Shown: positions 4,699-49,658 of the stretch, one piece after another
Position numbering within the stretch: position 1 is the stretch's first letter
Layout of the letters: each line of letters opens with the position of its first letter
Assembly (NCBI GenBank): GCA_963825995.1
Contig: CAWGVH010000001.1
Coordinates: 2,903-66,902 of the forward strand
Length of the DNA: 64,000 bases
Origin: an uncultured Chloroflexia bacterium
GTDB taxonomy: Bacteria > Chloroflexota > Limnocylindria > Limnocylindrales > CSP1-4
Direction of reading: 5' to 3'
Notes under the pieces: model-generated
Seen by the model: only the letters and a program-made list of their open reading frames with translations
What the model was told of the DNA's origin: nothing
The model's database searches: none
Program-made: the position numbers and the translations under genes

Positions 4699-6504
4699 CT
4701 ACGGGCAGGCCGTCTGCGGGTCGCCGAGGACGAGATCGACGTTGGAGCCCACGGGCACCATCGCGCCGGCTTTCGGCAATTGGTCGTGCACAAGCCAGGC
4801 GTCGCCTGGCGCGGGATCGCTCGGGATGACAGCCCCAACGAGCAGCTCGGCCTCCTCGATGTGGCCGCGCGCCTCAGCCAGGGTGAGGCACAGGAAGTCA
4901 CCCACCAGCGCCGACTGCTGCGACGGGAAGGGCGAGGGCGTGACACGCGGACGGAGCGTCGGCACTTGTCGCGGCGTGGAGGCCGGCGCGGCCGTCGCGC
5001 CCAGGCCGCGGCCAGTGGAGATCACGTAGTCCACGGCCGAGCCGCGTGTCAGCGATCCGCCGGGCCCGGGGTCCGTGGTGATGACGTAGCCCTCGGGCAA
5101 TAGGTCGTCCGCGATGTAGCGCATGCCCAGCTTCAGGCCCGCAGCTTCCAGCAGGGCGATGGCCCTGTCCTCCTTGATGCCGTGCACGTCAGGCACCACG
5201 ACGGTCTCCACCTCCGTGCCGACCGTCACCTGGATCAGAGTGCCGCTCGGAACCTGGACTCCGGGGCCGGGCAGCTGATCGATGACCAGGCCCACCTCGT
5301 TGTTCGATGCAACGTAGTCGGCCTCCACGACGAGGCCGCGTCGCCGGGCGACGTTGGCTGCGTCGCTCTCCGTGCGACCAACCAGCTGTGGGGTCCTGAC
5401 CAGGGCCACACCGCCCGTGGCTGTCGGGCTGGGCGCCGCGGCGCTGTCGCCGATGCCGCTGAAGAGGATGAAGAGCAGGATGCCGGATGCCACGATGACG
5501 AGCAGCCCGAGACCCGCGGCTGCCCAGGCCAAGGGGCCAGACCTGGAATGACCATGAGCCGCCGCTGCGGGCTGTCCCACCGACCCGGGGACGGATCCCC
5601 TGGACGCGACGCTCCCAGGGATGGGGACTGGGAGGCTGGCGCCTGGCGCGGTGCCCGCGGCAGCGAACGCCGACGCCCCTGACGGATCGGCGACGAAGCG
5701 CGTCAGGGCCATCGAGAGCTCCGACGCGGAAGGCCGCGCGGCCGGATCGATGGCCAGACACCAGCGCACGATGGCGTCCAGGGCCGGTGGCGTGTCAGCT
5801 CGCACCAGCGTCGGCGACGGCACGCTGCCGCTCAGGCGCGCCACGGCCACGGCGGCCGGCGAATCACCGGAGAATGGACGCTGGCCGGTGAGAAGCTCGT
5901 ACATCACGAGCCCCAGCGAGTAGATATCGGAGGCCGGGCTGGCGGTGTCCCCACGTGCCTGTTCCGGGCTGAAGTAGAGAACGCTGCCGAGCGTGATGCC
6001 GGTCGAGGTGACGGGTGAGCGGGCGGCAACGTGGGCGATGCCGAAATCGGCCACCTGCACCCGGCCGTCCGGCGAGAGCAGGATGTTGCTGGGCTTGATG
6101 TCGCGGTGGATAAGCCCCCGAGCATGCGCCGCCGCGAGAGCGTCGGCCACCTGCTGGCCGATGCGCGCCACGGCGGTCGGGGGCAGCGCGCCGTGCTCGC
6201 CGAGCGCCACGGAGAGGTCGCCGCCGGTCACCTGCTCCATGACGATGTAGGGTCCGGCCGGGTCGGTCCCGAAGTCGTAGACCTGCACGATATTGGGATG
6301 GCTGAGGGAGGCGGCCGCCCGTGCCTCGTGTCGGAAGCGCTCGACGAACTGGGCGTCGCTGCCGTACTCCGGGCGCAGCACCTTGACGGCCACCTCGCGC
6401 CCGAGCTTGCTGTCCGTGGCGCGGAAGATGGTGGCCATGCCACCCTGGCCCAGGACCTGGTCCAGTCGGTAGCGGCCAGCCAGGACCCGGCCGAGCTCAG
6501 CCAC
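4699..6504 (-). CDS. PknB-like Ser/Thr protein kinase with C-terminal PASTA domains
   Basis: Hanks kinase motifs are present: GQGGMATIF, AVKVL, HRDIKPSNILL, DFGIA, SPEQARG. A TM segment (AAAGLGLLVIVASGILLFILF) follows, then three PASTA-like units (VRTPQLVG.., VVVPDVHG.., VGDFLCLTLAEA..). Confidence 0.92.
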   Translation of the reverse strand: MAELGRVLAGRYRLDQVLGQGGMATIFRATDSKLGREVAVKVLRPEYGSDAQFVERFRHEARAAASLSHPNIVQVYDFGTDPAGPYIVMEQVTGGDLSVALGEHGALPPTAVARIGQQVADALAAAHARGLIHRDIKPSNILLSPDGRVQVADFGIAHVAARSPVTSTGITLGSVLYFSPEQARGDTASPASDIYSLGLVMYELLTGQRPFSGDSPAAVAVARLSGSVPSPTLVRADTPPALDAIVRWCLAIDPAARPSASELSMALTRFVADPSGASAFAAAGTAPGASLPVPIPGSVASRGSVPGSVGQPAAAAHGHSRSGPLAWAAAGLGLLVIVASGILLFILFSGIGDSAAAPSPTATGGVALVRTPQLVGRTESDAANVARRRGLVVEADYVASNNEVGLVIDQLPGPGVQVPSGTLIQVTVGTEVETVVVPDVHGIKEDRAIALLEAAGLKLGMRYIADDLLPEGYVITTDPGPGGSLTRGSAVDYVISTGRGLGATAAPASTPRQVPTLRPRVTPSPFPSQQSALVGDFLCLTLAEARGHIEEAELLVGAVIPSDPAPGDAWLVHDQLPKAGAMVPVGSNVDLVLGDPQTACP

Positions 6505-15673: not shown

Positions 15674-16672
15674 TCAGTCGCGCCGCCCGGTGAGGTCGGG
15701 CAATGGGTCGGAGATGCCGGCCAGCTTGACGACCTCATCCCAGAGCCAGCGCCGCTGGGCAGCGGACAAGCGCGTGGAGGGCAGCCGATCGAAGGGCCGC
15801 TCCCGCCGGTCGAGGAAGAGGCGCCCGCCGCCGAGACCGGCCTGGGGATGGCTGGCCAGCCAGGTGACCGTGTCGATACCCTGCGCCGGCGTGCGCAGGA
15901 GCGGGCCCACGAGACCGTAGAAGCGGGGCAGCGATTCGGCCAGGCCCGGCGTGTCCGCCCAACCCGGATGCATGGCATTGACGCGGACGCCACGACCGCG
16001 CAGCCGCCGTCCCCATTCGCGAACCAGGGCTGTGGCTGCCCGCTTCGCCCGCGCGTAGGCGAGGGTGCCGTTGTACTCGCCCCGTTCGAACTGCAGGTCG
16101 TCGAGCGGCAATGCCTGGCCATACATGCCACCTGAGACGACCGTGATGATGCGACCATCGCCGCTCGTCTCCAGCATCGGCAGCAAACCGGAGGTGAGCA
16201 CGAACGGTCCCACCACCATGGTGGCCAGTGTTGCCTCCAACCCTTCCTCAGTGACCGTGCGCGCGGCGTGGATGGCTCCGGCGTTATCGACGAGGATGTC
16301 CAGACGCCGCTCTGAGGCCTCGATCGCAGCCACGGCCTCGCGCACGCTGGCCAGGGAGGACATGTCGGCCACAACGACCGGGAAATGCCCCGCGCCACCA
16401 TACCGTTGCGCCAGCTCGGCAGCCGTGGCTGACAGGCGTTCGCGACTGCGACCGACGAGGACGACCCGGGCACCGAGCGACGCCAGCGACTCTGCGGTAG
16501 CGCGGCCCAACCCGGACGTCGGCCCGGTGACGAGGGCTGTGCGGCCGGCCAGTGCCGCGGGTTCCCCATCGAACCACCGGTAGAGGCGCCGACGAGCCTG
16601 GTAGCCGAGGCGGCTGAAGCTGCCCACGATCGTGATCTCGAGCGCGTCATCGACGAGGTAGCGCAGGTCCAT
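15674..16672 (-). CDS. short-chain dehydrogenase/reductase (SDR)
   Basis: ORF trimmed to ATG 16672. It has the TALVTGPTSGLG cofactor motif, NNAG-like DNAG, and YARAKRA (YxxxK). Confidence 0.85.
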   Translation of the reverse strand: MDLRYLVDDALEITIVGSFSRLGYQARRRLYRWFDGEPAALAGRTALVTGPTSGLGRATAESLASLGARVVLVGRSRERLSATAAELAQRYGGAGHFPVVVADMSSLASVREAVAAIEASERRLDILVDNAGAIHAARTVTEEGLEATLATMVVGPFVLTSGLLPMLETSGDGRIITVVSGGMYGQALPLDDLQFERGEYNGTLAYARAKRAATALVREWGRRLRGRGVRVNAMHPGWADTPGLAESLPRFYGLVGPLLRTPAQGIDTVTWLASHPQAGLGGGRLFLDRRERPFDRLPSTRLSAAQRRWLWDEVVKLAGISDPLPDLTGRRD

Positions 16673-16679
16673 GGGGAGG

Positions 16680-17180
16680 TCAGCCTTCGCCGGCGTCGGG
16701 ACCGGTGGCGCTGGCATCGGCCGCACTGACACCAGCACCGCTCGCGGCCAGCGCGTCCAGCTCTCGCTTCATGCCGGTCACGGCACCCTTGGCGATGCCG
16801 GCAAAGGCACGACCAAGAAGCGGCTGGATGGCCCCCAGCAGCCCGGAGAGCCTGATCTCGGCCACGTAATCGACGCGGGTACCCCCGGGTGCCTCGCTGA
16901 AGGTGATGCGGTCCTGGCTCCAGACACCGGAGCCCTCCCCGACCAGCACCACCTGGGTGGGTGCCTGATACTCGGTGATGCGGTACTCCATCGGCGTTGT
17001 CCGGGCACCCATCTTGACGTTGAGGGTGAAGCGGGCGCCGACACCCAGTTCGCCATCGTCGATGCGCCTCGATGAGGCGGTGTTGGGATCCCACTCTGCT
17101 TGGTGGGAGAAATCGGCCACATAGGCGAAGGCCGCCTCACGCGCCAGGGGGGTCGTCACGTGTTCGGTCAGCGTGGTCAT
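16680..17180 (-). CDS. SRPBCC (polyketide cyclase/dehydrase-like) family protein
   Basis: ORF trimmed to ATG 17180, which has a GGAGG RBS. The sequence is MTTLTEHVTTPLAREAAFAYVADFSHQAEWDPN... It is the first gene of a two-gene unit with the SDR. Confidence 0.75.
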   Translation of the reverse strand: MTTLTEHVTTPLAREAAFAYVADFSHQAEWDPNTASSRRIDDGELGVGARFTLNVKMGARTTPMEYRITEYQAPTQVVLVGEGSGVWSQDRITFSEAPGGTRVDYVAEIRLSGLLGAIQPLLGRAFAGIAKGAVTGMKRELDALAASGAGVSAADASATGPDAGEG

Positions 17181-17206
17181 GGTCTCAGCCTCCGATCGGG
17201 GTTGGG

Positions 17207-17246
17207 TAGACACTGTACAAACATTGTACTATCCTTCAACAGGAGG
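17207..17246. promoter_or_regulatory. candidate sigma70-type promoter (TAGACA-N17-TATCCT) overlapped by three 11-bp-phased repeats (TGTACAAACAT / TGTACTATCCT / TCAACAGGAGG); putative CarH/LitR operator
   Basis: Read directly from the sequence in the 108-bp divergent intergenic region 17181..17288. The same core CT(G/C)TACAAACATT(G/A)TAC recurs at 23742..23759. Confidence 0.45.
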
Positions 17247-17288
17247 CGTGACTGAGGCGCCCATCGCAGCGGGGGAAGGTCGAGCGTC

Positions 17289-18620
17289 ATGGACATCGCG
17301 GTCATCGGGTCAGGCATCAGTGGTCTGTCGGCAGCCTACGCCCTTCGTAACGACCACCGCGTGCGGCTCTACGAGGCCGAGCCTGAGCCGGGCGGTCACG
17401 TCAAGACCGTGAGCGTTGGCACGCCGGGTGGGCAACTCGCCGTGGATATCGGCTTCATCGTCTACAACGAGCCCACTTATCCGCGCTTCACCAGGCTGCT
17501 CGCCGAGCTGGGCGTGGAGACACAGCCAACGGAGATGTCGCTGGGTCACACCTGCCGCTCATGCAGCCTCGAGTTCAGCTCGCTCGGAGCGCGTGGCATG
17601 TTCGCGCAGCCGTCTAGCCTCCTGCAGGCCTCCCACTGGCGCATGATCGCGGACATCCGGCGCTTCTACGGCGTGGCGCGGCGCCGCCTCGACCACGACC
17701 GCTGGACGCGCGAGACCCTGGGCACCTTCCTCGACGACGGCGGCTACGGCATCGCTTTTCGCAATCACTTCCTGGTGCCGGTCGTCTCGGCTGTCTGGTC
17801 GACCTCGGCGGCCGAGATCATGGACTTCCCCGTCGACTACCTGCTTCGCTTCCTGGACAACCACGGCCTCATCGGGTTCGGGCAGAGTCATCCCTGGCGC
17901 ACCCTCAAGGGGGGCTCGAAGACCTACGTGGAGCGCATCCTGGAACGGCTGCCCGAGGGCTCGGTCCGCGCAGGCGACCCGGTGACCCGCATCCTGCGGC
18001 ACGAACAGAGTGTGACGGTGGTCACCGAGAGCGGCGCCAGCGCCCGCTTCGACGGCGTCGTCATGGCCACCCACGCGGACGTCACGCTGGCCTTGCTGGC
18101 TGATGCCGATGACGAGGAACGCGACGCCCTCGGCCTCTTCGAGTACACCATCAACGACGTCGTTCTCCATACGGACGAGACGATGCTGCCGCGTCGCGAG
18201 GGGGCGCGGGGATCCTGGAACGTGGATACCGTGGACTGCCACCGCCCTGGTCAGCAGTTGACCATGACCTACTTCATGAGCCGCCTGCAGCACCTGCCCG
18301 GAGAGACGCTCTACTGCACGTCTGTCAACCCGGGCGACCTGGTGGACCCCGCGAAGGTCATCTTGGCGCGATCCATGAGCCACCCCAAGTACACGTTCCG
18401 CACGCTGGACGGGCAGGTCGCCCTGGGCCGACTGCAGGGACATCGGCGCACCCTCTACGCCGGAGCGCACCTCGGCTATGGTTTCCACGAGGATGGCTGC
18501 CGGTCCGGCTACGAGGCTGCCGAGCGGATCGCTGGCGGCATCCTAGCGATCGCCCCCACGGGCTCTGGGGACGTCGCCGGGCCAGAGGTCGCCTCCGTCG
18601 TCCCGGCAGGCGCGGCATGA
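17289..18620 (+). CDS. FAD/NAD(P)-binding amine-oxidase-like oxidoreductase
   Basis: N-terminal dinucleotide fold [29 protein letters not shown]. It is the first gene of a translationally coupled operon with DUF1365 and a CFA-synthase-like gene. Confidence 0.85.
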
Positions 18621-19420
18621 CAGCGGTCGCCTCCAGACCGCGCTCGACAACGGAGCCACTGGCATCAGGACCGCACCCGATGCGCTCACACCTGCTGCAC
18701 GGCAAGGTCCGTCACCGGCGCTCACGACCGCTCGAGTATGAGCTCGAGCACGACGTCTTCTACCTCGCGCTTGACCTCTCCGAGATGGATGCCGCGATCG
18801 GCGGCGTGCGCCTTCTCAGCCGCAACCGCGCCAACGTGCTCACCTTCCGCGACCGCGACCACTGGCTCCCGGCAGCGACCGACCTGGCGGCCTCCGTCCA
18901 GCGGCACCTGCGCGAGGAGGGCCTCGACCCGACCGGCTGGCGCATCACCTTCATCGCCACGCCGCGCATCTTCGGCTACCAGTTCAACCCGGCCAGCTTC
19001 TACCTCTGTCGCGACAGCGAGGGTGCCCTGCGCGTCGTCATCATCGAAGTGCACAACACGCATGGCGAGCGGCGCCTCTACACGCAGCACCCGGAGCGGC
19101 ACGGTTCCGGCTGGGTCGATTCGATGGACAAGGACTTCTACGTCTCGCCCTTCATCGACATGGACGCCCGCTACAGGGTGCGGGTCCAGGACGACCCGCG
19201 GATCCTGCGCATCGCGATGTCGGAGACCGAGCACGGATCGCCCCTCCTCACCGCAAGCCTGGTGCTGCAGCGGGCACGGCTGACCGACCGGATGCTGGCG
19301 CGGCTCCTGCTGCGGATCCCCTTCGCCACGCACAAGACCATCGCGGCCATCCACCTGCACGCCTGGCGGCTGTGGCGCCGGGGCCTCCGTTTCCATCGCC
19401 ACTCTGAGGTGACCCGTTGA
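18617..19420 (+). CDS. DUF1365 family protein
   Basis: ATGA overlap with the upstream stop. [29 protein letters not shown]...[10 protein letters not shown] is the DUF1365 pattern. Confidence 0.8.
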
Positions 19421-20658
19421 CGGCTCCCACGCGCCTGGAGTGGCTGGCCGGCCCGCTCGATCCCCTCCTGACGGGCGTTTCGGGTCGCATCGGGCTGGCT
19501 GCCGCCTCGCGCATCCGCCACGGCTGCTTGACGGTGCATCTGCCGGACGGCTCGCGACGGGTCTTCGGCGACCGCGACTCCGAGTTGCGCGGCGAGATGC
19601 GCATCCACGACCTGGAGGCCCTGCGGCGCCTCTTGCTTGGGGGTGAGATCGGCGGTGGTGAGGCCTACGTGGACGGTCTCTGGTCCAGTCCCGACCTCGT
19701 GGCGCTCATCTCGCTGGCCGTGGCGAACCGGACCGACCTGGCCCTCTCCAAGGGCTGGTGGCGGGTGCCCGCCAAGGTCGGTCGGACCGTCGCCCATCGC
19801 CGCAACCGCAACACGAAGGCCGGTGCCCGGCGCAACATCACCGCCCACTACGACCTGGGCAACGACTTCTACCGGCTCTGGCTGGACGAGACCATGACCT
19901 ACTCGAGCGCGCTCTTCGAATCGCCCGAGCAGTCGCTGGCCGATGCTCAGCGCAGCAAGTACCGCCGCATGGCAGAGCTGGCTGGCCTGGAGCGTGGCCA
20001 GCACGTGCTCGAGATCGGCACCGGATGGGGCGGCTTCGCACTGTACGCGGCAGGCGAGCTGGGCTGCCGGGTCACGACCATCACCATCTCGCGATCGCAG
20101 CACGACCTGGCTCGTCAGCGTGTCACGGAGGCGGGGCTCGCGGGTCTCGTGGACGTCCAACTGCGCGACTACCGGGACCTGGAAGGCACCTACGACGCCA
20201 TCGTGTCGATCGAGATGCTGGAGGCCGTCGGCGCCGAGTACTACCGTGACTTCTTCGCGGCCTGCGGGCGAGCCCTGAAGACCGGAGGCCGCTTGAGCGT
20301 GCAGGTCATCACCTTCCCCCACGATGCCTACGAGGCGCAGCTGCGAGGCGCCAACTGGATCCAGCGCTACATCTTCCCAGGCGGCGTGCTGCCCTCCCTG
20401 GCGGCAATCGAGGCTTCCCTAGCCCACACCCAGCTGCTGGTGACCGGGGTGCACGACATCCGCGACAGCTACGCGCGCACGCTGCAGACGTGGCGGACCA
20501 GCTTCTTCGGTCACCTCGATGAGGTTCACGCCATGGGCTTCGACGACCGCTTCATCCGCATGTGGGACTACTACCTGTCCCTCAGCGAGGCAGGCTTCCG
20601 CACGGGCATGACGCAGGACCTTCAGATCGCCTTCCAGAAGCGCCGCGGCGTGGTCTGA
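19417..20658 (+). CDS. cyclopropane-fatty-acyl-phospholipid synthase family SAM-dependent methyltransferase
   Basis: TTGA overlap with the upstream stop. Motifs are HYDLGNDFYRLWLDETMTYSSALF and VLEIGTGWGGFALYAA. Confidence 0.88.
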   Translation: MTAPTRLEWLAGPLDPLLTGVSGRIGLAAASRIRHGCLTVHLPDGSRRVFGDRDSELRGEMRIHDLEALRRLLLGGEIGGGEAYVDGLWSSPDLVALISLAVANRTDLALSKGWWRVPAKVGRTVAHRRNRNTKAGARRNITAHYDLGNDFYRLWLDETMTYSSALFESPEQSLADAQRSKYRRMAELAGLERGQHVLEIGTGWGGFALYAAGELGCRVTTITISRSQHDLARQRVTEAGLAGLVDVQLRDYRDLEGTYDAIVSIEMLEAVGAEYYRDFFAACGRALKTGGRLSVQVITFPHDAYEAQLRGANWIQRYIFPGGVLPSLAAIEASLAHTQLLVTGVHDIRDSYARTLQTWRTSFFGHLDEVHAMGFDDRFIRMWDYYLSLSEAGFRTGMTQDLQIAFQKRRGVV

Positions 20659-20737
20659 GCTGGTGCAGCCGATCACGGGCGATCCGTCGACGCTGGTTCG
20701 ATCAGCCGACCCCATGGCCGGCCCTGCAGCCGTGCCG

Positions 20738-22174
20738 ATGCGCATCCTGATCGTGGGCGCCAGCGGGTACGTCGGCGGACGCCTGGCAGCACGTCTCATC
20801 GAGCGCGGCCACCACGTGCGGTTGGCCAGCCGGGATCCGCGGGGTCTGGCTGACCGCTTCCCGACGGCAGAGGTCGTCCGCCTCGATCTCCTGGACCCGG
20901 CAACCCTGCCGGCTGCCCTCGAGGGTGTCGAGCTGGCCTACTACCTGGCCCACTCCATGGCCGGTGGCGAGGCCGGCTTCGAACAGCGCGACCTTGCCGC
21001 CGCCCGCGCGTTCGCACGCTCCGCGCATGAGGCTGGCGTGGGCCACGTCGTCTACCTGGGCGGGCTGGGTGACCCCTCCAGGGAGCTCTCCCCGCACCTC
21101 ACCAGTCGCCAGCGGGTCGGGGCAGAGCTGGCCGCCCATGGCGTGCCGGTGACCGAGTTCCGGGCCGCCATCATCATCGGCTCGGGCAGCGCCTCCTTCG
21201 AGCTGTTGCGCAGCCTCGTGGAGCACCTGCCGGTGATGATCACGCCGCGCTGGGTGCGGACGCTATGCCAGCCCATCGCCGTCCGTGACGTACTCGACTT
21301 CCTCGTGGGAGCGGCCGGTCATCCGGAGCGCGCGGGCATCGTCGAGATCGGCGGGCCGGATGTGCTCTCCTACGCCGAGATGATGCAGACGTACGCGCGC
21401 CTGCGGGGCATGCGCCGTCTCATGATCCCGGTCCCGGTGCTCACGCCTCGGCTCAGCTCCTACTGGTGCAACCTGGTCACACCCGTCCCCGCCTCGATCG
21501 CGCGGCCACTCATCGAGGGACTCCGCAACGAGGTGGTCGTGCGCGAGCCCGGGCCTGCGGTAGCCTTCGGCATCGAGGCCACGCCCTTCGAGCTGGCCGT
21601 GCGGCGCGCCATCGAGCGTACCGACGGCCACGACATCGAGACCACCTGGTTCGATTCGATGGGCGTGCCCGGTCGGCCGGACCTGACCGAGGTGGGGTCA
21701 CGCGAGGGCATGATCGTGGACCGCCAGCGCCGCTCGGTCCATGCCAGTGCCACCGTGACCTTCGCCGAGATCGAGCGCCTCGGTGGGACCAGCGGCTGGC
21801 CGTTCGCCAACCTGCTCTGGGCGGCCCGCGGTCTGCTCGACCGCACCGTCGGTGGGCCCGGCATGCGCCTGGGTCGTCGGGACCCTGATCATGTCCGCGT
21901 CGGCGATGCTGTCGACTTCTGGCGCGTGGAGGCGGTGCGCTGGCCCGAGCTGCTGCGTCTCCGTGCCGAGATGAAGGTCCCCGGTCGCGCCTGGCTGCAG
22001 TACGAGGTGACCGAGTCAGCTGCAGGCAGCCTCATCACCCAGACCGCCTTCTTCGAGCCAAAGGGTCTCAGCGGCCGGCTCTACTGGTACCTCCTGCTGC
22101 CCGCGCACTGGCTGATCTTCCGCGGCTCCATCCGCAAGCTGGTGCAACGCGCCGAGCGAGCCGAGCGTCTCTGA
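20738..22174 (+). CDS. NAD(P)H-binding (atypical SDR/NmrA-like) protein with DUF2867-like C-terminal domain
   Basis: MRILIVGASGYVGGRLAARL Rossmann motif. The start could also be ATG 20714 or GTG 20663. Confidence 0.75.
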   Translation: MRILIVGASGYVGGRLAARLIERGHHVRLASRDPRGLADRFPTAEVVRLDLLDPATLPAALEGVELAYYLAHSMAGGEAGFEQRDLAAARAFARSAHEAGVGHVVYLGGLGDPSRELSPHLTSRQRVGAELAAHGVPVTEFRAAIIIGSGSASFELLRSLVEHLPVMITPRWVRTLCQPIAVRDVLDFLVGAAGHPERAGIVEIGGPDVLSYAEMMQTYARLRGMRRLMIPVPVLTPRLSSYWCNLVTPVPASIARPLIEGLRNEVVVREPGPAVAFGIEATPFELAVRRAIERTDGHDIETTWFDSMGVPGRPDLTEVGSREGMIVDRQRRSVHASATVTFAEIERLGGTSGWPFANLLWAARGLLDRTVGGPGMRLGRRDPDHVRVGDAVDFWRVEAVRWPELLRLRAEMKVPGRAWLQYEVTESAAGSLITQTAFFEPKGLSGRLYWYLLLPAHWLIFRGSIRKLVQRAERAERL

Positions 22175-22189
22175 CGCAGCGTCGGGTCC

Positions 22190-23623
22190 TCAAACGTCGG
22201 CACCCTCCCCGGCCCCGGCGGCCGTGACCGACCGGAAGGCAGCCAGGGCGCGCTCGCGCCCGGCCTGCAAGTCCACGATGGGCCGAGGGTAGGAACCACC
22301 GAGGTGGACGCCCGCCTCCGCGGACACAGCGGCAGACATCTCCCAGGGCGCGTGGATGTGGCGTGCCGGGACCTTCCCCAGCTCGGGCACCCAGCGGCGC
22401 ACCCAGTCACCATCAGGATCGAAGCGCTGCCCTTGCAGGACCGGGTTGAAGATGCGGAACCATGGCTGCGGGTCTGCGCCCACGCCCGCCGTCCACTGCC
22501 AGCCACCTCTGTTGTTCGCGACATCGCCATCGATCAGGTGCCCCATGAAGTGACGCTCGCCGACGCGGTAGTCCATGAGCAGGTGCCGGGTCAGGAAGGA
22601 GGCCACCACCAGGCGGGCCCGGTTGCCCAACCACGAGGTCGCCGCCAGCTGGCGCATGCCGGCATCCACGGCCGGGATGCCCGTGCGTCCTTCGCGCCAG
22701 GCAGCGACCGCCTCGGGGTCCTCCCGCTCTGAACGAAAGACGGCCATGAAGGGGCTATCAGCCGCGGGGTCGACGGCCGCGCGTCGATGGAAGAGCAGGT
22801 GATGGTAGAACTCCCGCCAGGCGACCTGGCGCACGAACGGCTGGGCCGTCTCGCCGACCTCAAGGGCGGCGCTCTCGACCTGGAGCGGCGAGAGCGTGCC
22901 GAGGTGGAGGTCGGGCCCCAGCCGCGACGTGGCCTGGCCGTCAAGGCCGTCACGGCCGCGACCGTAACCGGAGAGCCCTTCGAGCACCCAGGTCCGGAGG
23001 CGCTCCTGGGCGGCCGATTCGCCCGCCTCGGGCGTGCCGGGATATGGTGCCTCGCGATCAGCCAGCGCAGCCGTGACCGCCATCGACCCAGCCACGAGGT
23101 GCGCCGGGGTGTGGATGGCTCCGATGGCTGGCAGCAGTGGCCGCCGGGCGGCCTGCTGCAGCGCTCGCCAGAACGGCGTGAAGACGCCGTACGGCCGGCC
23201 AGAGGCGGTGAGCATGGACTCAGGCTCGGCCAGCAGCAGACCGGGCTGCAGCTGGAGGCGACGGCCGTCGCGCTCGAGCGCGGCAGCCACGGCCTGGTCA
23301 CGTCGATGGCTGAAGGGCGTGACGTCCCGGGTCGCCAGGATGACGGCAGCGCCGGCCTCATGCGCCAGCCTCGGCACGACCTCCTCGGGGCGACCGGTAC
23401 GCAGGAGCAGGCCGCTGCCACGCACCCGCAGGGAGGCGTCGAGCTCGGCGAGCGTGCGCATCAGGAACCACGTCCGTGCCGGCGCGGACGTGGAAGCGTC
23501 CAGGAGTCGCTCATCGAGCACAAAGAGCGGGATCACGGCGCGCCCTCCAGCCACCGCCATGCTCAGGGCCGGATGGTCCCTGATCCGCAGGTCGCGCCGA
23601 AACCAGACGATGGCGGTGTCCAT
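22190..23623 (-). CDS. phr: deoxyribodipyrimidine photolyase (CPD photolyase/cryptochrome family)
   Basis: ORF trimmed to ATG 23623, which has a GGAGG RBS. Motifs are MDTAIVWFRRDLRIRDHPAL, TSRLGPDLHLGTLSP, WREFY, GWQWTAGVGAD and RIFNPVLQ. Confidence 0.9.
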   Translation of the reverse strand: MDTAIVWFRRDLRIRDHPALSMAVAGGRAVIPLFVLDERLLDASTSAPARTWFLMRTLAELDASLRVRGSGLLLRTGRPEEVVPRLAHEAGAAVILATRDVTPFSHRRDQAVAAALERDGRRLQLQPGLLLAEPESMLTASGRPYGVFTPFWRALQQAARRPLLPAIGAIHTPAHLVAGSMAVTAALADREAPYPGTPEAGESAAQERLRTWVLEGLSGYGRGRDGLDGQATSRLGPDLHLGTLSPLQVESAALEVGETAQPFVRQVAWREFYHHLLFHRRAAVDPAADSPFMAVFRSEREDPEAVAAWREGRTGIPAVDAGMRQLAATSWLGNRARLVVASFLTRHLLMDYRVGERHFMGHLIDGDVANNRGGWQWTAGVGADPQPWFRIFNPVLQGQRFDPDGDWVRRWVPELGKVPARHIHAPWEMSAAVSAEAGVHLGGSYPRPIVDLQAGRERALAAFRSVTAAGAGEGADV

Positions 23624-23673
23624 GCTCTCCTCCACCCTGCTCCTCTGGTCGATGTCTTGGTCGGCGCTCCAGA

Positions 23674-23760
23674 ACCCTGTACAGCCGCCAAGAACATTGT
23701 ACAAGTGGTTGACACCTGAGGGTGATATCCGTATCCTGAAACTCTACAAACATTATACAC
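23674..23760. promoter_or_regulatory. divergent phr / SRPBCC-epimerase control region: promoter TTGACA-N17-TATCCT plus five TGTACA/ACA repeat units; putative CarH/LitR operators
   Basis: Repeat units are CTGTACA (23677), AACATTGTACAAGTGGTTGACAC (23693..23715, two units 11 bp apart) and CTCTACAAACATTATACAC (23742..23760, two units 11 bp apart). The -35 is at 23709..23714 and the -10 at 23732..23737. Confidence 0.45.
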
Positions 23761-25215
23761 ATGGGATCCGAGGCGATGACGAAACACACGCTGGACAGCA
23801 CCCACATCGTGAAGGCGGACCTGGAGCGCGTGTGGGATTTCTTCTCCCGTGCCCGCAACCTGGGACGCATCACCCCCCGCTCGATGGGCTTCGACATTCA
23901 CACGCCCGACCCGGTGACGGAGACCGGCGCCGTCATCGATTACACGGTGCGGCCGCTGTTCGGCATCCCCACCCACTGGCAGACGCACATCGATGAGGTG
24001 GAAGCTCCCCTGCGCTTCCGCGACGTGCAGGCCAAGGGCCCCTACAGGTCGTGGGTCCACGAACACCGCTTCACTCCTGTCACGGACGGGGTCCGCATGG
24101 ACGACCACGTCGAGTACGAGCTGCCCCTCGGGCCGCTCGGCACCCTGGGACACCGTCTCGTGGTGCGGGCCCAGCTCGAGCACGTCTTCGCCTTTCGTGC
24201 CACGGCCATCGACCAGATCTTTGAGCCGGCCGGCGACCGGGCGAACGGGCGACCGGGTACCATCGCCGTCGCCGGCGGGACAGGTTTCGTGGGTGGTGAG
24301 ATCGCCCGTGAGCTCCGCCGCCGCGGGCGGCACGTCGTCGTCCTCTCCTCTCGGGGCGAGGGTGCCCGCGGGCAGTTGCCGGACGACATCGAACTGCGGT
24401 CGGCCGACGTCCGCGACCCCGCAGGCCTGGGCGCCGCGCTGGAGGGCGTGGATGAGCTGGTCATCTCACTGGCCTTCCCTGGCCTACCGGTCGAGCAGCC
24501 CAGCAAGGGCTACACCTTCATGGAGGTCGATGCCGGCGGCACGCAGCGGCTCATCGCAGCCGGCCGGCAGGCTGGCGTCCGCCGCGTGGTCTACCTCTCG
24601 GGTGCGGGTGCTGGTCACGACGCCCAGCGTCACTGGTTCCGCGCCAAGGCCGTGGCGGAGGACGCCGTGCGCGGCTCAGGGATGGCCTGGACGATCCTGC
24701 GACCAACTTGGGTCTATGGCTCCGGCGACGTCTCGCTCAACCGCTTCCTCGGGTTCACACGCTCCCTGCCCTTCGTGCCTCTCACGAATCTGGGCCGCCA
24801 GCTGCTGGCCCCGGTCTTCGTCGGCGACGTGGCTCGCCTGGCGGCGGATTCACTGGAGCAGGATGCTGCCGTCGAGCAGGTCTTCGAGGTCGGTGGCCCG
24901 GAGGCCATGTCCATGCGCGAGGTCATCGGACGGGCCATGAGCGTGGCGGGCCTTCACAAGCCCCTCATCCCCGGCCCCGCTCCACTCCTCAAGATGGCCG
25001 CCTGGCCCATGCGCTTCCTGCCGAACCCGCCCCTGAGCCCTGACGCGGTGGATTTCGTCAACCAGCCGGCCACCGTGGACATCGAGCCCCTCTTGCGATC
25101 CATGCCGCGCACGCTCACGCCACTGGAGGCCGGCCTGGCGACGTACCTGGGCCCGCGGCACACCTCGACCACGATCATCGACGGACTCACGGAGGGTGTG
25201 CGGACGCCCGCCTGA
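23761..25215 (+). CDS. fusion protein: N-terminal SRPBCC domain + NAD-dependent epimerase/dehydratase (atypical SDR) domain
   Basis: N-terminal sequence is HIVKADLERVWDFFSRARNLGRITP...YRSWVHEHRF. It is followed by IAVAGGTGFVGGEIAREL and a Rossmann-type domain. Confidence 0.8.
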   Translation: MGSEAMTKHTLDSTHIVKADLERVWDFFSRARNLGRITPRSMGFDIHTPDPVTETGAVIDYTVRPLFGIPTHWQTHIDEVEAPLRFRDVQAKGPYRSWVHEHRFTPVTDGVRMDDHVEYELPLGPLGTLGHRLVVRAQLEHVFAFRATAIDQIFEPAGDRANGRPGTIAVAGGTGFVGGEIARELRRRGRHVVVLSSRGEGARGQLPDDIELRSADVRDPAGLGAALEGVDELVISLAFPGLPVEQPSKGYTFMEVDAGGTQRLIAAGRQAGVRRVVYLSGAGAGHDAQRHWFRAKAVAEDAVRGSGMAWTILRPTWVYGSGDVSLNRFLGFTRSLPFVPLTNLGRQLLAPVFVGDVARLAADSLEQDAAVEQVFEVGGPEAMSMREVIGRAMSVAGLHKPLIPGPAPLLKMAAWPMRFLPNPPLSPDAVDFVNQPATVDIEPLLRSMPRTLTPLEAGLATYLGPRHTSTTIIDGLTEGVRTPA

Positions 25216-25243
25216 CGGTGCGCCTGTAGCCGGACACGACGCC

Positions 25244-27520
25244 ATGGTCGAGAGGCGCATCCCCCACGACGACGTGCCGCACATCCACGGCGGCACGATC
25301 CGCATCGCATCGGCGCCCCGCTGGCTACGTCAGCCTGCGACACGGTCTTTCGGGCTGGCCTCGTCGCTCGACGCTGTGCGGCGCGCTCCGACCATCCTGT
25401 CCGCTATCCGTCTCGCCCCGCAGGTCCGCGATGCAGCCGGCGCCGCCCTCCGTGCTGGCACCCGTCCGGCGCTCCTCCTGGAGCCGCTCGAGGAGGCCAT
25501 CCGGGACGCCAGCGACACGGTCACGGCCGTGGCCGCCATCCACGCCCTGGGGGAGGTCCCGGGCCGCCTCGCCGAGCGCGAGATGGCCCAGATGCTGAGC
25601 GAGGGCGTGAACGGCTTCGACGCCCACGCCGCCTGGACCGCGAGCCTGCGGCCGGCGTCGCCCGCGCTCATCGAGCCACTCACCAAGACCGTTGCACGCG
25701 GTGGCCTGGCCGGCATGCACGCCCAGCATGCCCTGGCCCGTTGGGCGAGCCAGGACGCCGGCATCGCGTCGGCTGTCCTGGTCGCCCTCGACACGGCGCT
25801 CCGGGAGACAGGCGTCGCGACCGCGCGCCGCTACCTCGCCGAGGTCGCTGGCCTCGTGCCCGGTCCCGTCGGCCGACGACTCCTGGAGCGGCTGGCCACC
25901 GATGCCTCGGAAGCGTCGGCCGTGCGAGTCGAGGCTGTCGCTTCGCTGGGTGACCGGGTCGGCGAGCGGCTGCCGCCGAGCGTCACGTCCCTGGCCTCGC
26001 AGGGCGGCCCCATCGGAGAGGCGGTTCGACAGGCGCGGGCACGGCAGGTGCTGGGGCGCCGCGGCCCGCGCCGCAGCCACACCCGCGAAGACGGCCTGAA
26101 GATCGCCCAGGTCCACCTCGGCGCCGTCCTGGACGCCGAGGCGACTCGCGCCGGTGTGGGTGATGCTGGTGGCGTTGCCACGCTGCTGCCGAGGCTGGGG
26201 GCAGCGCTGGCGGCAGAGCCGCACATCCACGAGATCATCAGCGTCGGCCGGGCGCTGCCCGGCGTGCCGGCGCGAACGCGGCTGCACGAGCAGCCCACGA
26301 TGGGCGGCCACTGCTTCGAGAACGTGGCCCTGGAAGAAGGCGAGGGTGCCACCTTCGCGGGTGACTGGCCCTCGCTCGTGGCGGCCGAGCGCGGCATTCG
26401 CGCCGCCTTGCTGGCATCAGGCACGCCGGACGTCCTCCACCTGCGCATTGCTGACCCGGGCAGCCTGGCCGCAGCACGTGTGGCCCACGAACTCGGCATC
26501 CCGACCGTCTTCACGCTCGCTCCTGATCCGCACGGTCCCATCGCGGCCGCCGAGCGCCGGGGCACACTCGACCGTCGGACCTTCGGGACGGAGGACGCGC
26601 GGTCGGCACTCTGGTATCGCGTCGGCCTCGTGGCACGGTTTGCCCACGAGGCCCGCGAGTTGGTCCTCTTCCCGCGACCCGACCTGCCGCGACAGCTCGC
26701 CGAGCTGGTGGGCATCGACCTGGCTGCCGGGCCGCCTCGTCACACCATCGTGGCCGAGGGCGTGGATACCCAGCAGGCCGACGAAGCTGCGGCAGCACGT
26801 GCGGCCGGCACGAGCGCAGCCGTCCTGGACGACCTGGTGCGGGCCATCGAGCGCCTGCCTGAGGAACGGCAGGGGCTGCCCATCGTCGTGAGCGTCGGCC
26901 GGCTCCACGACGTCAAGGGCATGGCCCGCATCGTCGAGGCCATCGCCCGCGACCCATCGCTCGGCGCGGGGGCGAACCTCGTCCTCGTCGGCGGCGACCT
27001 CGACCATCCAAATGCCGGTGAAGCGGCCGAGCTGGCGCGCATCAACGTGCTCTTCCACAGGCATGCCGGCCTCAGCGATCGGGTGATCCTGCTCGGACAC
27101 CGTCGGCACGCCGAGGCTGGCCTGCTCCTCGCGGTCGCGAGGCACGGCTGGGGCGACTGGGTCGCGCCTGGTGGCGCCTACGTCTGTGGCAGTCCCAAGG
27201 AGGAGTTCGGGCTCGCCATCCTGGAGGCCATGGCCGCGGGCCTGCCCGTCGTGGCGCCGCTGACTGGCGGCCCTGCCACCTACATCGAGCCCGGGGTCAC
27301 CGGCGCGTTGGTGGACACGACCGACCCGCGTGCCATCGCTGCCGGCATCCACGAGGCGCTGCACCTTGCCGCGGATCCGGCGACCGGCGAGCGCACCCGG
27401 TCCGTCGTGGACGCGCGCTTCACCCTCAGCCGGATGGCCCACACGCTGGCCGCTGTCTACCGCATCGCGGCCGGCGCCAGCACGCTGGCCCTGACCGTGG
27501 AGGAAGGCCGGGCGGCGTGA
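25244..27520 (+). CDS. HEAT-repeat N-terminal region fused to a GT4-family (GT-B) glycosyltransferase
   Basis: The C-terminal half carries VVSVGRLHDVKG...LVLVGG...GSPKEEFGLAILEAMAAGLPVVAP..GGPATYIEPGVTG, the glycos_transf_1 signature. Start chosen at ATG 25244, just after the upstream stop. Confidence 0.75.
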   Translation: MVERRIPHDDVPHIHGGTIRIASAPRWLRQPATRSFGLASSLDAVRRAPTILSAIRLAPQVRDAAGAALRAGTRPALLLEPLEEAIRDASDTVTAVAAIHALGEVPGRLAEREMAQMLSEGVNGFDAHAAWTASLRPASPALIEPLTKTVARGGLAGMHAQHALARWASQDAGIASAVLVALDTALRETGVATARRYLAEVAGLVPGPVGRRLLERLATDASEASAVRVEAVASLGDRVGERLPPSVTSLASQGGPIGEAVRQARARQVLGRRGPRRSHTREDGLKIAQVHLGAVLDAEATRAGVGDAGGVATLLPRLGAALAAEPHIHEIISVGRALPGVPARTRLHEQPTMGGHCFENVALEEGEGATFAGDWPSLVAAERGIRAALLASGTPDVLHLRIADPGSLAAARVAHELGIPTVFTLAPDPHGPIAAAERRGTLDRRTFGTEDARSALWYRVGLVARFAHEARELVLFPRPDLPRQLAELVGIDLAAGPPRHTIVAEGVDTQQADEAAAARAAGTSAAVLDDLVRAIERLPEERQGLPIVVSVGRLHDVKGMARIVEAIARDPSLGAGANLVLVGGDLDHPNAGEAAELARINVLFHRHAGLSDRVILLGHRRHAEAGLLLAVARHGWGDWVAPGGAYVCGSPKEEFGLAILEAMAAGLPVVAPLTGGPATYIEPGVTGALVDTTDPRAIAAGIHEALHLAADPATGERTRSVVDARFTLSRMAHTLAAVYRIAAGASTLALTVEEGRAA

Positions 27521-28884
27521 CCCTGTTGGTCGTCAGCCCCGACTACGTCTCACACGCCATCCCGCTGCTCACCATCGCGGAAGCCTGGGCCGCCAAGGGC
27601 GAGCGGGTCGTGGTGGCCACAGGGCCGGCCATCGCCCCGATCGTCGAGGGGGCCGGCTTCGAGCACGCTGAGCTCATCATGTCGCGTGGGTCTAACGCGG
27701 GCGCCGCCGTGGCCGAGCGAGGATCGCGCGCCGAGGCACGCTCACTGGACGCCTTCTTCATGGCCACTCGCCGAGGCATGCTCCAGACCCTGCGCTTCCA
27801 GGCGGAGGCTCGCGCCATCGACCTGCTGTGGCAGCCGCAGCTCGTGGCCCGAAGGACGATCCGCATCGTAGAGCGCGTGCGCCCCGACGCCATCCTTGTG
27901 GACCACCTTGCCTTCGCGGCCACGATCGGCCTGCGGGCCATGGGCGTGCCGTACGCAGATGTCGTCGTCGGCCACCCAACGGCACTGCCCGTCGGCGCGG
28001 AGGTCTATGGCGTGCCATCGGCGTGGCCGTCCGCCATCACAGCCGACCAGGTCCAGCTCGCGACGCTGCGGGCCATCGCCCGCGGGGTCAGCGAGGCCTT
28101 TGGCGATGCCTACGATCGCGTCCTGCGCTCGCTGGCGCCGGGGACCGAGCCTGTCGGCGATGCCTTCGCCGCCCACGGGGACCTGGTCCTCTACGCCTAC
28201 CCCGAGGATCTGCACGAGGCGACGCGATCGGCACTCCTGCCGCGACACGCCTTCCTGGGCAGTGCCGTCCGCCACGAACCGCCCGACGACGAAGCGGCGG
28301 CCTGGCTGGCATGCGCCGATGGACGACCACTGGTGGTCGTATCCCTCGGCACCTTCCTCTCTGCGCGCAGCGACGTCCTGGCGCGGGTCGCCGCAGCACT
28401 GCGCAAGGTCGAGGCACGCGTGGCAATCGCCATCGGCGCCAACGACCCCGGGATCATCGGTCCGCTCCCCTTGGACTGGCTCGTGCGTGCCAGCCTGCCG
28501 CAGGTGGCGCTGCTGGGGCATGCCTCCCTGCTCGTGACGCACGGCGGCAACAACAGCGTGACGGAGGCCCTCACTCACGGCGTGCCGCTGTTGGTCATGC
28601 CCTTCTCGAGCGACCAGTTCGACGGTGCCGCGGCCATCGAACGGCATCTGGCCGGTGTGGCGCTGGACCCGAACCGCGCCAGCCGGCCACTCATCGCCGG
28701 GAGCGTCCGCGGCCTGCTCCAGTCCCCACCGACGACGCCCGGACGCATCAGCGAGAGGCTCCGGGCGCTGCCAGGCTCTGAGATCGCCTATGCGGCGCTG
28801 TCTGGAGGCGGCCATCTCGCGCCCCACCCGACCCCCACGGCGACACCCACGGCGAGAAGCAGCGTCGTGACGACCTCCGCCTGA
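27517..28884 (+). CDS. GT1-family UDP-glycosyltransferase (MGT/CrtX-like)
   Basis: GTGA overlap with the upstream stop. The C-terminal motif is LLVTHGGNNSVTEALTHGVPLLVMPFSSDQF. Confidence 0.8.
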   Translation: MTLLVVSPDYVSHAIPLLTIAEAWAAKGERVVVATGPAIAPIVEGAGFEHAELIMSRGSNAGAAVAERGSRAEARSLDAFFMATRRGMLQTLRFQAEARAIDLLWQPQLVARRTIRIVERVRPDAILVDHLAFAATIGLRAMGVPYADVVVGHPTALPVGAEVYGVPSAWPSAITADQVQLATLRAIARGVSEAFGDAYDRVLRSLAPGTEPVGDAFAAHGDLVLYAYPEDLHEATRSALLPRHAFLGSAVRHEPPDDEAAAWLACADGRPLVVVSLGTFLSARSDVLARVAAALRKVEARVAIAIGANDPGIIGPLPLDWLVRASLPQVALLGHASLLVTHGGNNSVTEALTHGVPLLVMPFSSDQFDGAAAIERHLAGVALDPNRASRPLIAGSVRGLLQSPPTTPGRISERLRALPGSEIAYAALSGGGHLAPHPTPTATPTARSSVVTTSA

Positions 28885-28955
28885 CGGAGCTCTCAGGGAC
28901 ACCGGGGCGCTGGACCGCCCTGCCCTGACCATCCACCAGGGCCACGGGAATCGAG

Positions 28956-28983
28956 CGAGCCGGCCCCCGAAGGGACCGGCTCG
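28956..28983. terminator. GC-rich hairpin between convergent genes (possible bidirectional terminator)
   Basis: GAGCCGGCCC-CGAA-GGGACCGGCTC: an 11-bp stem with 1 mismatch and a tetraloop. There is no clear U-tract. Confidence 0.3.
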
Positions 28984-29012
28984 ATCGGCAGGGGGAGAGG
29001 GTGGAGGAGCGG

Positions 29013-29579: not shown

Positions 29580-29675
29580 CAGGGGTTCCTCCTTGTGGTA
29601 GTCCGTGTCAGTGCTTGAGGTGGACGGAGGCTTGGGAGCGGATGGAAGATCGTCCCCCAAGCCTCCAGTCGTGGC

Positions 29676-30983: not shown

Positions 30984-31090
30984 CTGGGTGACTTCCTTTC
31001 GGGTTGCGACGGTCAAAGATGTGGAGCGGGCCGGCAGTGGCAAGGGGAAGCGCACTGCCGACCCGGTTGGATCAGTGAAGGTTGGCTGGG

Positions 31091-31840: not shown

Positions 31841-32047
31841 GGTTCGTTCCTTTCCATGAGTGTTGGTCACTGATGTGAGCCTGTGGCTCGAAGCGGCGAG
31901 CCTGGAGGCCCACCGGCGGGGCGGTCGAGGCGCGCTGCGCCCCTTGCGTGGGCCCCTAGCGGGACCACCTGTCGGTCATGTCGTTGTCTCCTCGCTCTGC
32001 TCTCCTGTTCAAGGTCTGTTGACCTGATGGAGCAGACGATACCCGTG

Positions 32048-32080: not shown

Positions 32081-32125
32081 TTTCAGCGTGCGGCTGTCAC
32101 ACAGGCGTGATATGGTCAACAAAGC

Positions 32126-33043
32126 ATGTACAGCATCAAGCAAGCTTCAATCCGCTCTGGCGTCAGCGTTCCGCTCATCCGGGCGTGGGAGCGCCGCTAC
32201 GGCGTGGTCAGCCCTAAGCGCACGCCATCCGGCTACCGGCTCTACGACGACGAGGCCATCGCCACCCTCGTGCGCGTGCGGGAGCTGACCGATAGCGGGT
32301 GGGGTGCCAGCGAGGCCAGTCGAGCCATCCTGGCCGGCGAGGTTGGGGTGATGCCCATCGTCCAAATGGCTCCCGTCCCCCTGGGCGACGGGTCCGCACG
32401 CACGCGTCAGGCAGACCTCAACGGGCGGTTCCTGGCAGCCGCAACGGCCATGGACATCGCCGGGACGGGCGCCGTGCTTGACGAGATCCTCGCGCAGGGA
32501 TCGTTCGAGTCCGTCGTCGACGATCTGCTCATGCCGGCCCTCGCGTCACTCGGTCTGGCCTGGACGGAGGGCCGGCTGGACGTCGCGGCGGAGCATGCCG
32601 CAAGCGCCGCTGTCCATCGCCGGCTGTCTGCACTGTACGAGGCGGCCGCGGTCATCGGTGACGTCAGCGTCGTCGTTGGCCTGCCGCCAGAGGGCCGCCA
32701 CGAGCTGGGTGCGCTCGCGTTCGCCGTGGCGCTGCGGCGCCTGGGGGTCGGCGTGCTGTACCTCGGTGCGGACGTGCCCGCCGCCAGCTGGGTGCACGTC
32801 ATCCGGCAGCATCGTGCTCGTGTCGTGGTTCTGGCTGTTGTCCAGGATTCCGACCAGCGTAGGGCGCTCGAGGTTGCAGACGCGCTGCGCGCCGCAGGCC
32901 AGAGCCTCGTCTTCGCGGTCGGTGGCCGCAGCGCCAGATGGGACGGGACGCGGGAAGCCGGTATCGTGGTGCTGCCGGACCGCATCAACGAGGCGGCCGC
33001 GGTGACGGCCAGGCTCGCAGCAGGGTCAGTCGCGGCACGGTAG
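32126..33043 (+). CDS. MerR-family transcriptional regulator with C-terminal cobalamin-binding domain (CarH/LitR-type light-responsive repressor)
   Basis: The N-terminal MerR HTH is YSIKQASIRSGVSVPLIRAWERRYGVVSPKRTPSGYRLYDDEAI. The helical-bundle motif WTEGRLDVAAEH has W-x9-EH spacing. The B12-binding Rossmann segment is VVVGLPPEGRHELGALAFAVALRRLGVGVLYLGADVP. Confidence 0.85.
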   Translation: MYSIKQASIRSGVSVPLIRAWERRYGVVSPKRTPSGYRLYDDEAIATLVRVRELTDSGWGASEASRAILAGEVGVMPIVQMAPVPLGDGSARTRQADLNGRFLAAATAMDIAGTGAVLDEILAQGSFESVVDDLLMPALASLGLAWTEGRLDVAAEHAASAAVHRRLSALYEAAAVIGDVSVVVGLPPEGRHELGALAFAVALRRLGVGVLYLGADVPAASWVHVIRQHRARVVVLAVVQDSDQRRALEVADALRAAGQSLVFAVGGRSARWDGTREAGIVVLPDRINEAAAVTARLAAGSVAAR

Positions 33044-49640: not shown

Positions 49641-49658
49641 ACCGCCGACGTTCTGTCG

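Follow-up and report, generated by a model that had tools for sequence, protein, structure and literature searches.

Which protein, if any, reads three short repeats that stand 11 bp apart between two divergent genes of an uncultured Chloroflexia bacterium? The repeats lie at 17207-17246 of a 64-kb window (the whole stretch of DNA analysed here; contig CAWGVH010000001.1 of assembly GCA_963825995.1, 69.7% GC), within the 108-bp noncoding gap that separates the ATG of an SRPBCC gene (17180, minus strand) from the ATG of a flavin adenine dinucleotide (FAD)-oxidoreductase gene (17289). From the sequence, we consider it likely that 17210-17242 is the operator of a class I, adenosylcobalamin (AdoCbl)-type CarH/LitR repressor encoded at 32126-33043 of the same window. 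This reading draws on the match of the repeats to an experimentally defined tandem 11-bp operator that overlaps -35/-10 elements, on a phylogenetic footprint confined to 17214-17241 in 20 genomes, on the recurrence of phased repeats at linked promoters, including that of carH itself, on a regulator with a MerR domain, two B12 domains and a Wx9EH motif, with no other transcription factor encoded in the cluster, and on targets that are classic light-damage genes, like the targets of class II LitR (PMC9758184).

A conserved triple repeat overlaps a predicted promoter

The letters from 17207 to 17246 are TAGACAcTGTACAAACATTGTACTATCCTTCAACAGGAGG. Three plus-strand cores, TGTACA (DR1, 17214-17219), TGTACT (dr2, 17225-17230) and TCAACA (DR3, 17236-17241), start in exact 11-bp phase at 17214, 17225 and 17236, as the initial annotation had seen in the sequence. 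Together they define operator A (17210..17242, plus strand), three tandem 11-bp units delimited by a 3x11 position weight matrix (PWM) and by conservation. When framed as 11-mers from 17210, 17221 and 17232 (ACACTGTACAA, ACATTGTACTA and TCCTTCAACAG), the units do have, as was claimed, T at position 5 and ACA, ACT and ACA at positions 8-10 of units 1, 2 and 3, respectively. The annotation had taken the Thermus CarH operator as its model, and its description of that operator as three tandem 11-bp direct repeats of nAnnTnnACAn agrees with the literature (PMC8156234, PMC9304148). The fit proposed to that consensus is partial: the T and AC(A/T) positions agree, and position 2, which is C in all three units and not A, does not.

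The annotation had also placed a promoter here, and TAGACA-17-TATCCT (17207..17235, plus strand), a predicted sigma-70-type promoter for the FAD-oxidoreductase operon, was the sole promoter-like match that our promoter scan found in 17150-17320 (mean of 0.1 in shuffles). An alternative -10, TACTAT (17227-17232, plus strand), is suggested by conserved columns that read TACyAT invariantly in the clade. The operator overlaps the -10 of the predicted promoter, and the claim that the repeats fill the promoter spacer needs to be redrawn: the spacer contains repeat 1, the -10 is overlapped by repeat 2, and repeat 3 follows directly after the -10, over the predicted start. The GGAGG at 17242-17246, which had been included in the element, falls outside its conserved part. 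A short open reading frame (ORF) from GTG 17248, after AGGAGG (17241-17246), was considered and rejected; it has a spacing of 1 nt, lies out of frame and shows no conservation in relatives.

The window contains one copy of the triple pattern T..ACA-N5-T..AC-N6-T..ACA, for which 100 first-order Markov simulations give an expectation of 0.00, and one copy of TGTAC-N6-TGTAC, with 0.02 expected. Its four TGTACA hexamers all fall within three promoter regions of one gene cluster, which we call regions A, B and C.

Relatives were found by a photolyase-anchored scan restricted to one genome per species, which gave about 20 syntenic loci. All are from metagenome-assembled genomes (MAGs) of uncultured Chloroflexota, with photolyases 58-88% identical and the same cluster, including carH. 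One record, L001 (CAVQQK010000007.1), comes from a MAG labelled 'uncultured beta proteobacterium'; because its locus shows 75-95% protein identity and full synteny with the window and with Chloroflexia-labelled MAGs, that label is probably wrong.

For region A, we aligned the window with 19 orthologous FAD-oxidoreductase/SRPBCC intergenic regions using MAFFT (20 sequences). The repeats are present in 19/19 of the orthologous regions, where their usual form is TTGCGTAGgnTGTACAAACATTGTACcATCcTTGTACA, with three TGTACA cores in 11-bp phase. Across the 20 genomes, 13 columns of the 28-bp core (17214-17241) are invariant and its mean majority fraction is 0.91, compared with fractions of 0.59 and 0.55 and no invariant column in its noncoding flanks, and 0.81-0.92 in adjacent coding DNA. 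Invariant noncoding columns in this alignment are confined to 17214-17241. Unit position 2 is C or G in the matrix of region-A units from relatives. Repeat 3 keeps its T and its ACA in every sequence, and the inner two bases are free (GT, CA, AG, GG, CT, GA, AT). This pattern matches the later published consensus for CarH repeats, nnnnTnnACAn, which describes operators that overlap -35/-10 elements and that contain three repeats in Thermus (PMC9304148).

The triple pattern is found once per related locus, at the orthologous site, in 17 of the 19 loci, and once more in the carH region of one locus (L014). It is absent from a non-clade comparison set of 60 unrelated photolyase loci (1.05 Mb), and no three-unit array of the motif was seen in these 60 loci, among them loci of Tepidiforma, Dehalococcoidia, Anaerolineae, Acidobacteriota and Alphaproteobacteria with clusters of phr, FAD oxidoreductase, DUF1365 and cfa genes. 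Within the loci sampled, the motif is specific to the clade. In the related loci (417 kb), 100 of 116 TGTACA hexamers lie inside the three promoter regions, and core-to-core spacings of TGTACA-type cores peak at 11 and 22 bp.

A metagenome scan for TGTACA-N5-TGTAC-N6-TGTACA returned at least 120 stretches, mostly 11-bp satellites or iteron-like tandem arrays on low- or medium-GC contigs, and tblastn revealed no carH, photolyase or ufa neighbours among the metagenome matches listed. Arrays of TGTACAGTATA / TGTACAATATA 11-bp units recur in metagenome contigs of about 50% GC, often as two clusters about 59 bp apart (contigs L083, L108, L111, L128, L132, L136, L138, L141, L163, L165, L174, L176, L180, L188, L194 and L197). 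These arrays look like iterons or another repeated operator, unrelated to the cluster of the window.

Phased repeats recur at linked promoters

The PWM was built from the region-A units of the relatives only, with 50 shuffles as the null. In the window, its first-ranked match was 17210-17242 (44.7 bits), followed by 23728-23760 (26.6 bits) and 32048-32080 (13.5 bits); the null maximum was 12.4 bits, and regions A, B and C are the only parts of the window that exceed it. The two-unit pattern T..ACA-N5-T..ACA occurs five times in the window against 0.14 expected, and all five occurrences are at 23698-23759 and 32006-32132.

Region B lies between a photolyase gene (22190-23622, minus strand, with its true ATG now fixed) and an operon of an SRPBCC-epimerase gene and two glycosyltransferase genes (23776-28884, plus strand, true start ATG 23776). 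Operator B1 (23698..23714, plus strand) is a pair of phased repeats, TGTACAagtggTTGACA, conserved in relatives, and its second repeat is the -35 of a predicted promoter, TTGACA-17-TATCCT (23709-23737). Operator B2 (23743..23759, plus strand; TCTACAaacatTATACA), the 26.6-bit site, is likewise a conserved pair and sits between the -10 and the true ATG of the SRPBCC-epimerase/glycosyltransferase operon. The promoter of the photolyase gene was not located. Upstream of that gene an extra TGTACA (23678-23683) is kept in relatives; its distance to the next core is variable (19-26 bp), with no 11-bp phase.

Region C lies between a DUF4397-DUF4397-fasciclin operon (29013-31870, minus strand) and carH. 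Operator C1 (32048..32080, minus strand; 13.5 bits) has three units, cAGACA-TTGACA-TGGACA, the middle one of which is the -35 of the promoter predicted for the DUF4397-DUF4397-fasciclin operon, TTGACA-18-TATCGT (32065-32036). Downstream of the -10 of this operon is operator C2, the pair TCAACAgacctTGAACA (32006..32022, minus strand), whose TGTnnA-N5-TGTnnA pattern is kept in all relatives shown. Operator C3 (32116..32132, plus strand; TCAACAaagcaTGTACA) starts where an extended -10, TGaTATGGT (32108-32116, conserved as TGnTAnnnT), ends and continues across the carH ATG (32126), and its upstream, noncoding unit is conserved as TC[A/G]ACA. Because C3 spans the interval from extended -10 to start codon, the arrangement implies a carH mRNA that would be leaderless and a carH gene that would be autoregulated.

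Non-palindromic cores (TTGACA, TGGACA, TCAACA, TGAACA, TAGACA) always hold T..ACA on the strand of the promoter that they overlap. This co-orientation favours direct, head-to-tail repeats over a dyad.

The candidate regulator

The gene at 32126..33043 (plus strand) encodes a carH/litR-type regulator of 305 amino acids with the Pfam domains MerR_1, B12-binding_2 and B12-binding. The initial annotation had named its product as the protein to test for binding in dark and light, and its domains, its match to Thermus CarH, its Wx9EH motif and its axial His mark it as a CarH-type protein. The alignment with Thermus thermophilus CarH (5C8D) spans the full length of the protein and has an E value of 1.4e-30. 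Both B12 Pfam domains, including PF02310 (B12-binding), score above threshold. The recognition helix and wing, WERRYGVVSPKRTPSGYRLY (region WERRYG..KRTPSGYRLY), are very similar to those of Thermus CarH, and the N-terminal domain is nearly invariant across the clade. The four-helix-bundle B12-binding_2 domain contains Wx9EH as WTEGRLDVAAEH, which is kept in all complete clade members; this motif is reported to be absolutely conserved in AdoCbl-dependent CarH, to be diagnostic of it and to be absent from CarA (PMC8156234). In the Rossmann B12-binding domain, the axial His (RHELG) is present, and the His, Gly and GG positions are intact across the clade. In the window's protein and the CarH orthologues of L002-L058, the linker between the DNA-binding and B12 domains exceeds that of Thermus CarH by about 20 residues.

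Predicted target genes

The operon downstream of operator A has four genes (17289..22174, plus strand), assigned by Pfam: a FAD amine-oxidase/UfaD-like gene (17289-18620), a DUF1365/UfaO-like gene (18617-19420), a cyclopropane-fatty-acid (CFA)-synthase/UfaM-like gene (19417-20658) and an NmrA-DUF2867 gene (20663-22174). The Ufa names are given by analogy (PMC7380195). In the Rhodobacter operon RSP1091-1087, the synthesis of furan fatty acids depends on ufaD, which encodes a FAD-binding desaturase, and on ufaO, which encodes a DUF1365 protein; the methylase UfaM is encoded by a separate gene (PMC7380195). The first three genes of the window's operon have the domain content and order of RSP1091 (ufaD), RSP1090 (ufaO) and the ~400-residue RSP1089 of Rhodobacter, and by this analogy the operon would be of a ufaD/ufaO/cfa-like, furan fatty acid type.

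The divergent unit (15674..17180, minus strand) consists of the SRPBCC gene (16680-17180; ATG 17180, ribosome-binding site GGAGG) and an SDR gene (15674-16738). The SRPBCC ribosome-binding site is just 20 bp away from operator A, so the SRPBCC-SDR promoter must overlap the operator or lie beyond it, and both directions from region A are probably controlled. A minus-strand candidate for this promoter, TTGAAG-16-TACAGT (17240-17213), agrees at no more than 8 of 12 positions, and the promoter scan did not return it.

Within the ~160-nt leader of the DUF4397 operon we observed a conserved 7-codon upstream ORF (uORF; 31956-31994, minus strand), ATGACCGACAGGTGGTCCCGCTAG, which encodes MTDRWSR and has its own ribosome-binding site, GAGGAGA. 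Its start, 8-codon length, Arg-Trp at codons 4-5 and stop (TAG/TGA/TAA) are kept in 13/13 genomes. The stop sits in the loop of a conserved GUGG/CCAC hairpin, which is followed by a GGCG-N5-CGCC hairpin, and the uORF may be a leader-peptide attenuator. A search of Rfam with the whole window and with 31860-32040 returned only a flavin mononucleotide (FMN) riboswitch and a tRNA, and no family for this leader.

A model for light control

The model that follows is our inference with regard to DNA binding, oligomeric state, use of the cofactor, response to light and sites of transcription start. In the dark, AdoCbl-bound regulator would oligomerize, as a tetramer if it behaves like Thermus CarH, and three of its MerR-type DNA-binding domains would occupy the three direct repeats of 11 bp head-to-tail, along a single face of the DNA. 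Once bound, the oligomer would cover the transcription start of the ufaD/ufaO/cfa-like operon together with the promoter spacer and the -10; because the gap measures only 108 bp, it would probably also cover the promoter of the divergent SRPBCC-SDR unit, and RNA polymerase would be excluded. Light would photolyse AdoCbl, whereupon the oligomer would dissociate, release the DNA and allow the genes to be expressed. The same regulator would also act at the photolyase/SRPBCC-epimerase-glycosyltransferase and DUF4397-fasciclin/carH divergent promoters, and regions A-C together would make up a light-controlled photoprotection island of about 18 kb (15674-33890).

We propose more tentatively, as a combination that we think somewhat less than even in probability, that in an apparently carotenoid-cluster-free lineage CarH controls this whole island through three divergent promoter pairs, with single self-complementary TGTACA arrays serving both directions; that the regulon adds functions new to B12/light control, namely a DUF4397-DUF4397-fasciclin envelope operon with a 7-codon leader ORF and an SRPBCC-epimerase with two glycosyltransferases; and that the photoreceptor has a non-canonical B12 motif. 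If this is true, the non-canonical motif could mean altered cobalamin coordination or photochemistry.

Weighing the alternatives

Several points weigh against assigning operator A to a class I CarH. The scans covered 64 kb of the source genome and about 21 kb per relative, and the promoters are consensus predictions, with a choice of TACTAT or TATCCT as the -10 at region A. Unit position 2 is C/G instead of the A of the Thermus consensus; the broader published consensus, nnnnTnnACAn, leaves that position free (PMC9304148). Repeat 2 carries ACT/ACC, not ACA, and is a pseudo-repeat, on which the -10 probably imposes a constraint. The TGTACA core is its own reverse complement, and repeats 1 and 2 can also be read as a palindrome, GTACAA-N3-TTGTAC; the DR1-dr2 pair alone is both a direct repeat and a dyad, and a dimer might bind this one pair as an inverted repeat. 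Lastly, the motif ExHx2Gx41SxV/Tx22-27GG is altered throughout the clade, with E replaced by G/S/A (to give G/S/A-R-H-E-L-G) and S by A, and with such a B12 motif the handling of the cofactor may differ.

This last point bears on the alternative that survives best, that a CarH-family protein does bind the repeats and responds to a signal other than AdoCbl photolysis, whether as a CarA-like, B12-independent protein, as a class II-V LitR-like protein with a partner photoreceptor or antirepressor, or as a sensor of B12 availability. The B12 motif of the whole clade has no acidic residue at the second position ahead of the axial His and carries Ala for Ser in SxV/T, and TGTACA cores are also used by LitR classes that sense in other ways (PMC9758184). 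However, Wx9EH, which is reported absent from CarA (PMC8156234), is intact in all clade members, and so are the Gly, the GG and the axial His; the two B12 domains score above their Pfam thresholds; and no gene for a LOV protein, an antirepressor or another partner was seen in the cluster. We consider this alternative unlikely.

Slightly less likely again is that a different regulator, encoded outside the window, such as a LexA-like SOS repressor or another MerR/TetR-type protein, binds as a conventional dimer to the palindrome (T)GTACAA-N3-TTGTAC(A), and that carH is nearby by coincidence. Repeats 1 and 2 do form a near-perfect 17-bp palindrome, the flanking A/T at 17220-17221 and 17224-17225 are conserved, and photolyase serves DNA repair. 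Cyanobacterial LexA uses palindromes that contain GTAC. In contrast to what a dimer site would predict, the third repeat is conserved at exact 11-bp phase with T..ACA alone invariant, and the pairs at the other sites are non-palindromic and co-oriented (TGTACA+TTGACA, TTGACA+TGGACA, TCAACA+TGAACA), which a dyad-binding dimer would not have favoured. A phased site also lies on carH's own promoter. As for the LexA-like version, the GTAC-N7-GTAC spacing does not fit a box of the form RGTAC-N3-DGTWCB, and the cluster has no recA, lexA or other SOS genes.

Other site and regulator types were considered and rejected. A classical MerR-type activator site has its dyad in a 19-20 bp spacer; here the best promoter spacer is 17 bp, and the three phased repeats run past the -10. 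A class II LitR (PplR/PmlR) site, T(G/A)TACA-N12-TGTA(C/T)A, was rejected on spacing, which is N5 here, and no 18-bp peak appears in the clade loci. A class II LitR regulator, which has no Rossmann B12 domain, was rejected since PF02310 is present above threshold in the product of 32126-33043.

Finally, the idea that the repeats are bare promoter elements and no repressor site, for example a -35/-10 pair of extracytoplasmic function (ECF) type for photo-oxidative stress or two overlapping divergent promoters, can draw on the resemblance of TGTACA to TTGACA, the overlap of repeat 2 with the invariant TACyAT -10, cores 22 bp apart that could mimic a -35/-10 pair, and the sigma-E/ChrR control of homologous Rhodobacter clusters (PMC7380195), but is very improbable: pairs 11 bp apart downstream of a predicted -10 (23743-23759, 32116-32132) cannot be -35/-10, ordinary sigma-70-like promoters are already predicted at each site, no sigma or anti-sigma gene is in the cluster, and T..ACA with free inner bases is the pattern of a CarH repeat and not of a hexamer box.

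Comparison with known light regulators

The operator of the Thermus thermophilus carH/crt promoter (PDB 5C8E) likewise has three tandem 11-bp direct repeats with TnnACA cores on one DNA face, overlapping the promoter. The two regulators share a MerR domain, a four-helix bundle with Wx9EH and a Rossmann B12 domain, and the regulator gene is autoregulated in both, by prediction in the window. The window differs from Thermus in its self-complementary TGTACA core with C/G, not A, at position 2, in the placement of the region-A repeats over spacer, -10 and +1 and not over the -35, in its ~20-residue longer linker, and in the deviating ExHxxG/SxV motif. Its targets are also different: furan-fatty-acid-type, photolyase, glycosyltransferase and DUF4397/fasciclin genes in place of carotenoid genes. 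In Bacillus megaterium and myxobacteria, CarH operators, with 3-5 repeats in all, mix canonical TnnACA repeats with pseudo-repeats ('dr') and overlap the -35 or -10 (PMC9304148), an arrangement that DR1-dr2-DR3 fits. Arrays of four or five units that serve carotenogenesis set those operators apart, whereas the window has three units at A and two or three elsewhere.

Similar to the window, the class II LitR proteins PplR1 of Pseudomonas putida and PmlR2 of P. mendocina use a TGTACA core, with sites over the -35 and between start and ATG, as at 23698-23759 (PMC9758184). Their regulon is very similar in content to the cluster described here: in Pseudomonas, class II LitR controls phrB, an SDR gene, a FAD oxidoreductase gene and ufaM (PMC9758184). 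However, their sites are TGTACA-N12-TGTACA, and the regulators lack a Rossmann B12 domain and are LOV-dependent (PMC9758184), whereas in the window the spacing is N5 and the regulator has both B12 domains and Wx9EH.

The Streptomyces LitR paper gives no operator data. A full-text literature search for CarH together with Chloroflex* turned up no more than a passing reference to a CarH-like gene beside phytoene synthase in Herpetosiphon. Romine et al. are said to have described, in 2017, PhrR as a B12-dependent light regulator of photolyase, cfa and folate genes in Halomonas and other Proteobacteria. PhrR is a MerR-B12 regulator set over photolyase and cyclopropane/furan fatty-acid-type genes and not over carotenoid genes, as is predicted for the regulator here, and it comes from a different phylum.

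Other features of the window

The FMN riboswitch (49488-49636, plus strand, 75.5 bits) precedes an ABC transporter ATPase/permease pair (49575-51412), which probably transports riboflavin or a related compound. On the minus strand, 35655-44341 encodes a 2162-residue protein with 26 PASTA repeats and a DUF3261-like stretch, followed directly by a 743-residue protein with 8 PASTA repeats; a PASTA Ser/Thr kinase is encoded elsewhere in the window, at 4699-6504. A formate-tetrahydrofolate ligase gene (52878-54574, minus strand) is split into one ORF that matches profile positions 2-158 (54062-54574) and another that matches 182-556 (52878-54065), which could reflect a frameshift, a pseudogene or an assembly error.

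Biological significance

What the locus offers is a known mechanism in a new example, from an uncultured Chloroflexota lineage, and no new mechanism. It provides a regulon at the level of sequence, open to test, for a B12-based photoreceptor in a lineage without a cultured model, whose nearest MAGs are labelled Chloroflexia or Limnocylindrales. The 11-bp direct-repeat logic of Thermus, Bacillus and myxobacteria would extend to Chloroflexota, with a core, TGTACA, that is also the core of B12-independent LitR classes at another spacing. CarH would be linked to furan-fatty-acid-type lipid genes, photolyase, glycosyltransferases and DUF4397/fasciclin genes instead of carotenoids, and functions are suggested for several domains of unknown function, with light induction predicted for all of them. 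In optogenetics, CarH-based switches could gain an orthogonal part from the compact 33-bp operator and its cognate repressor.

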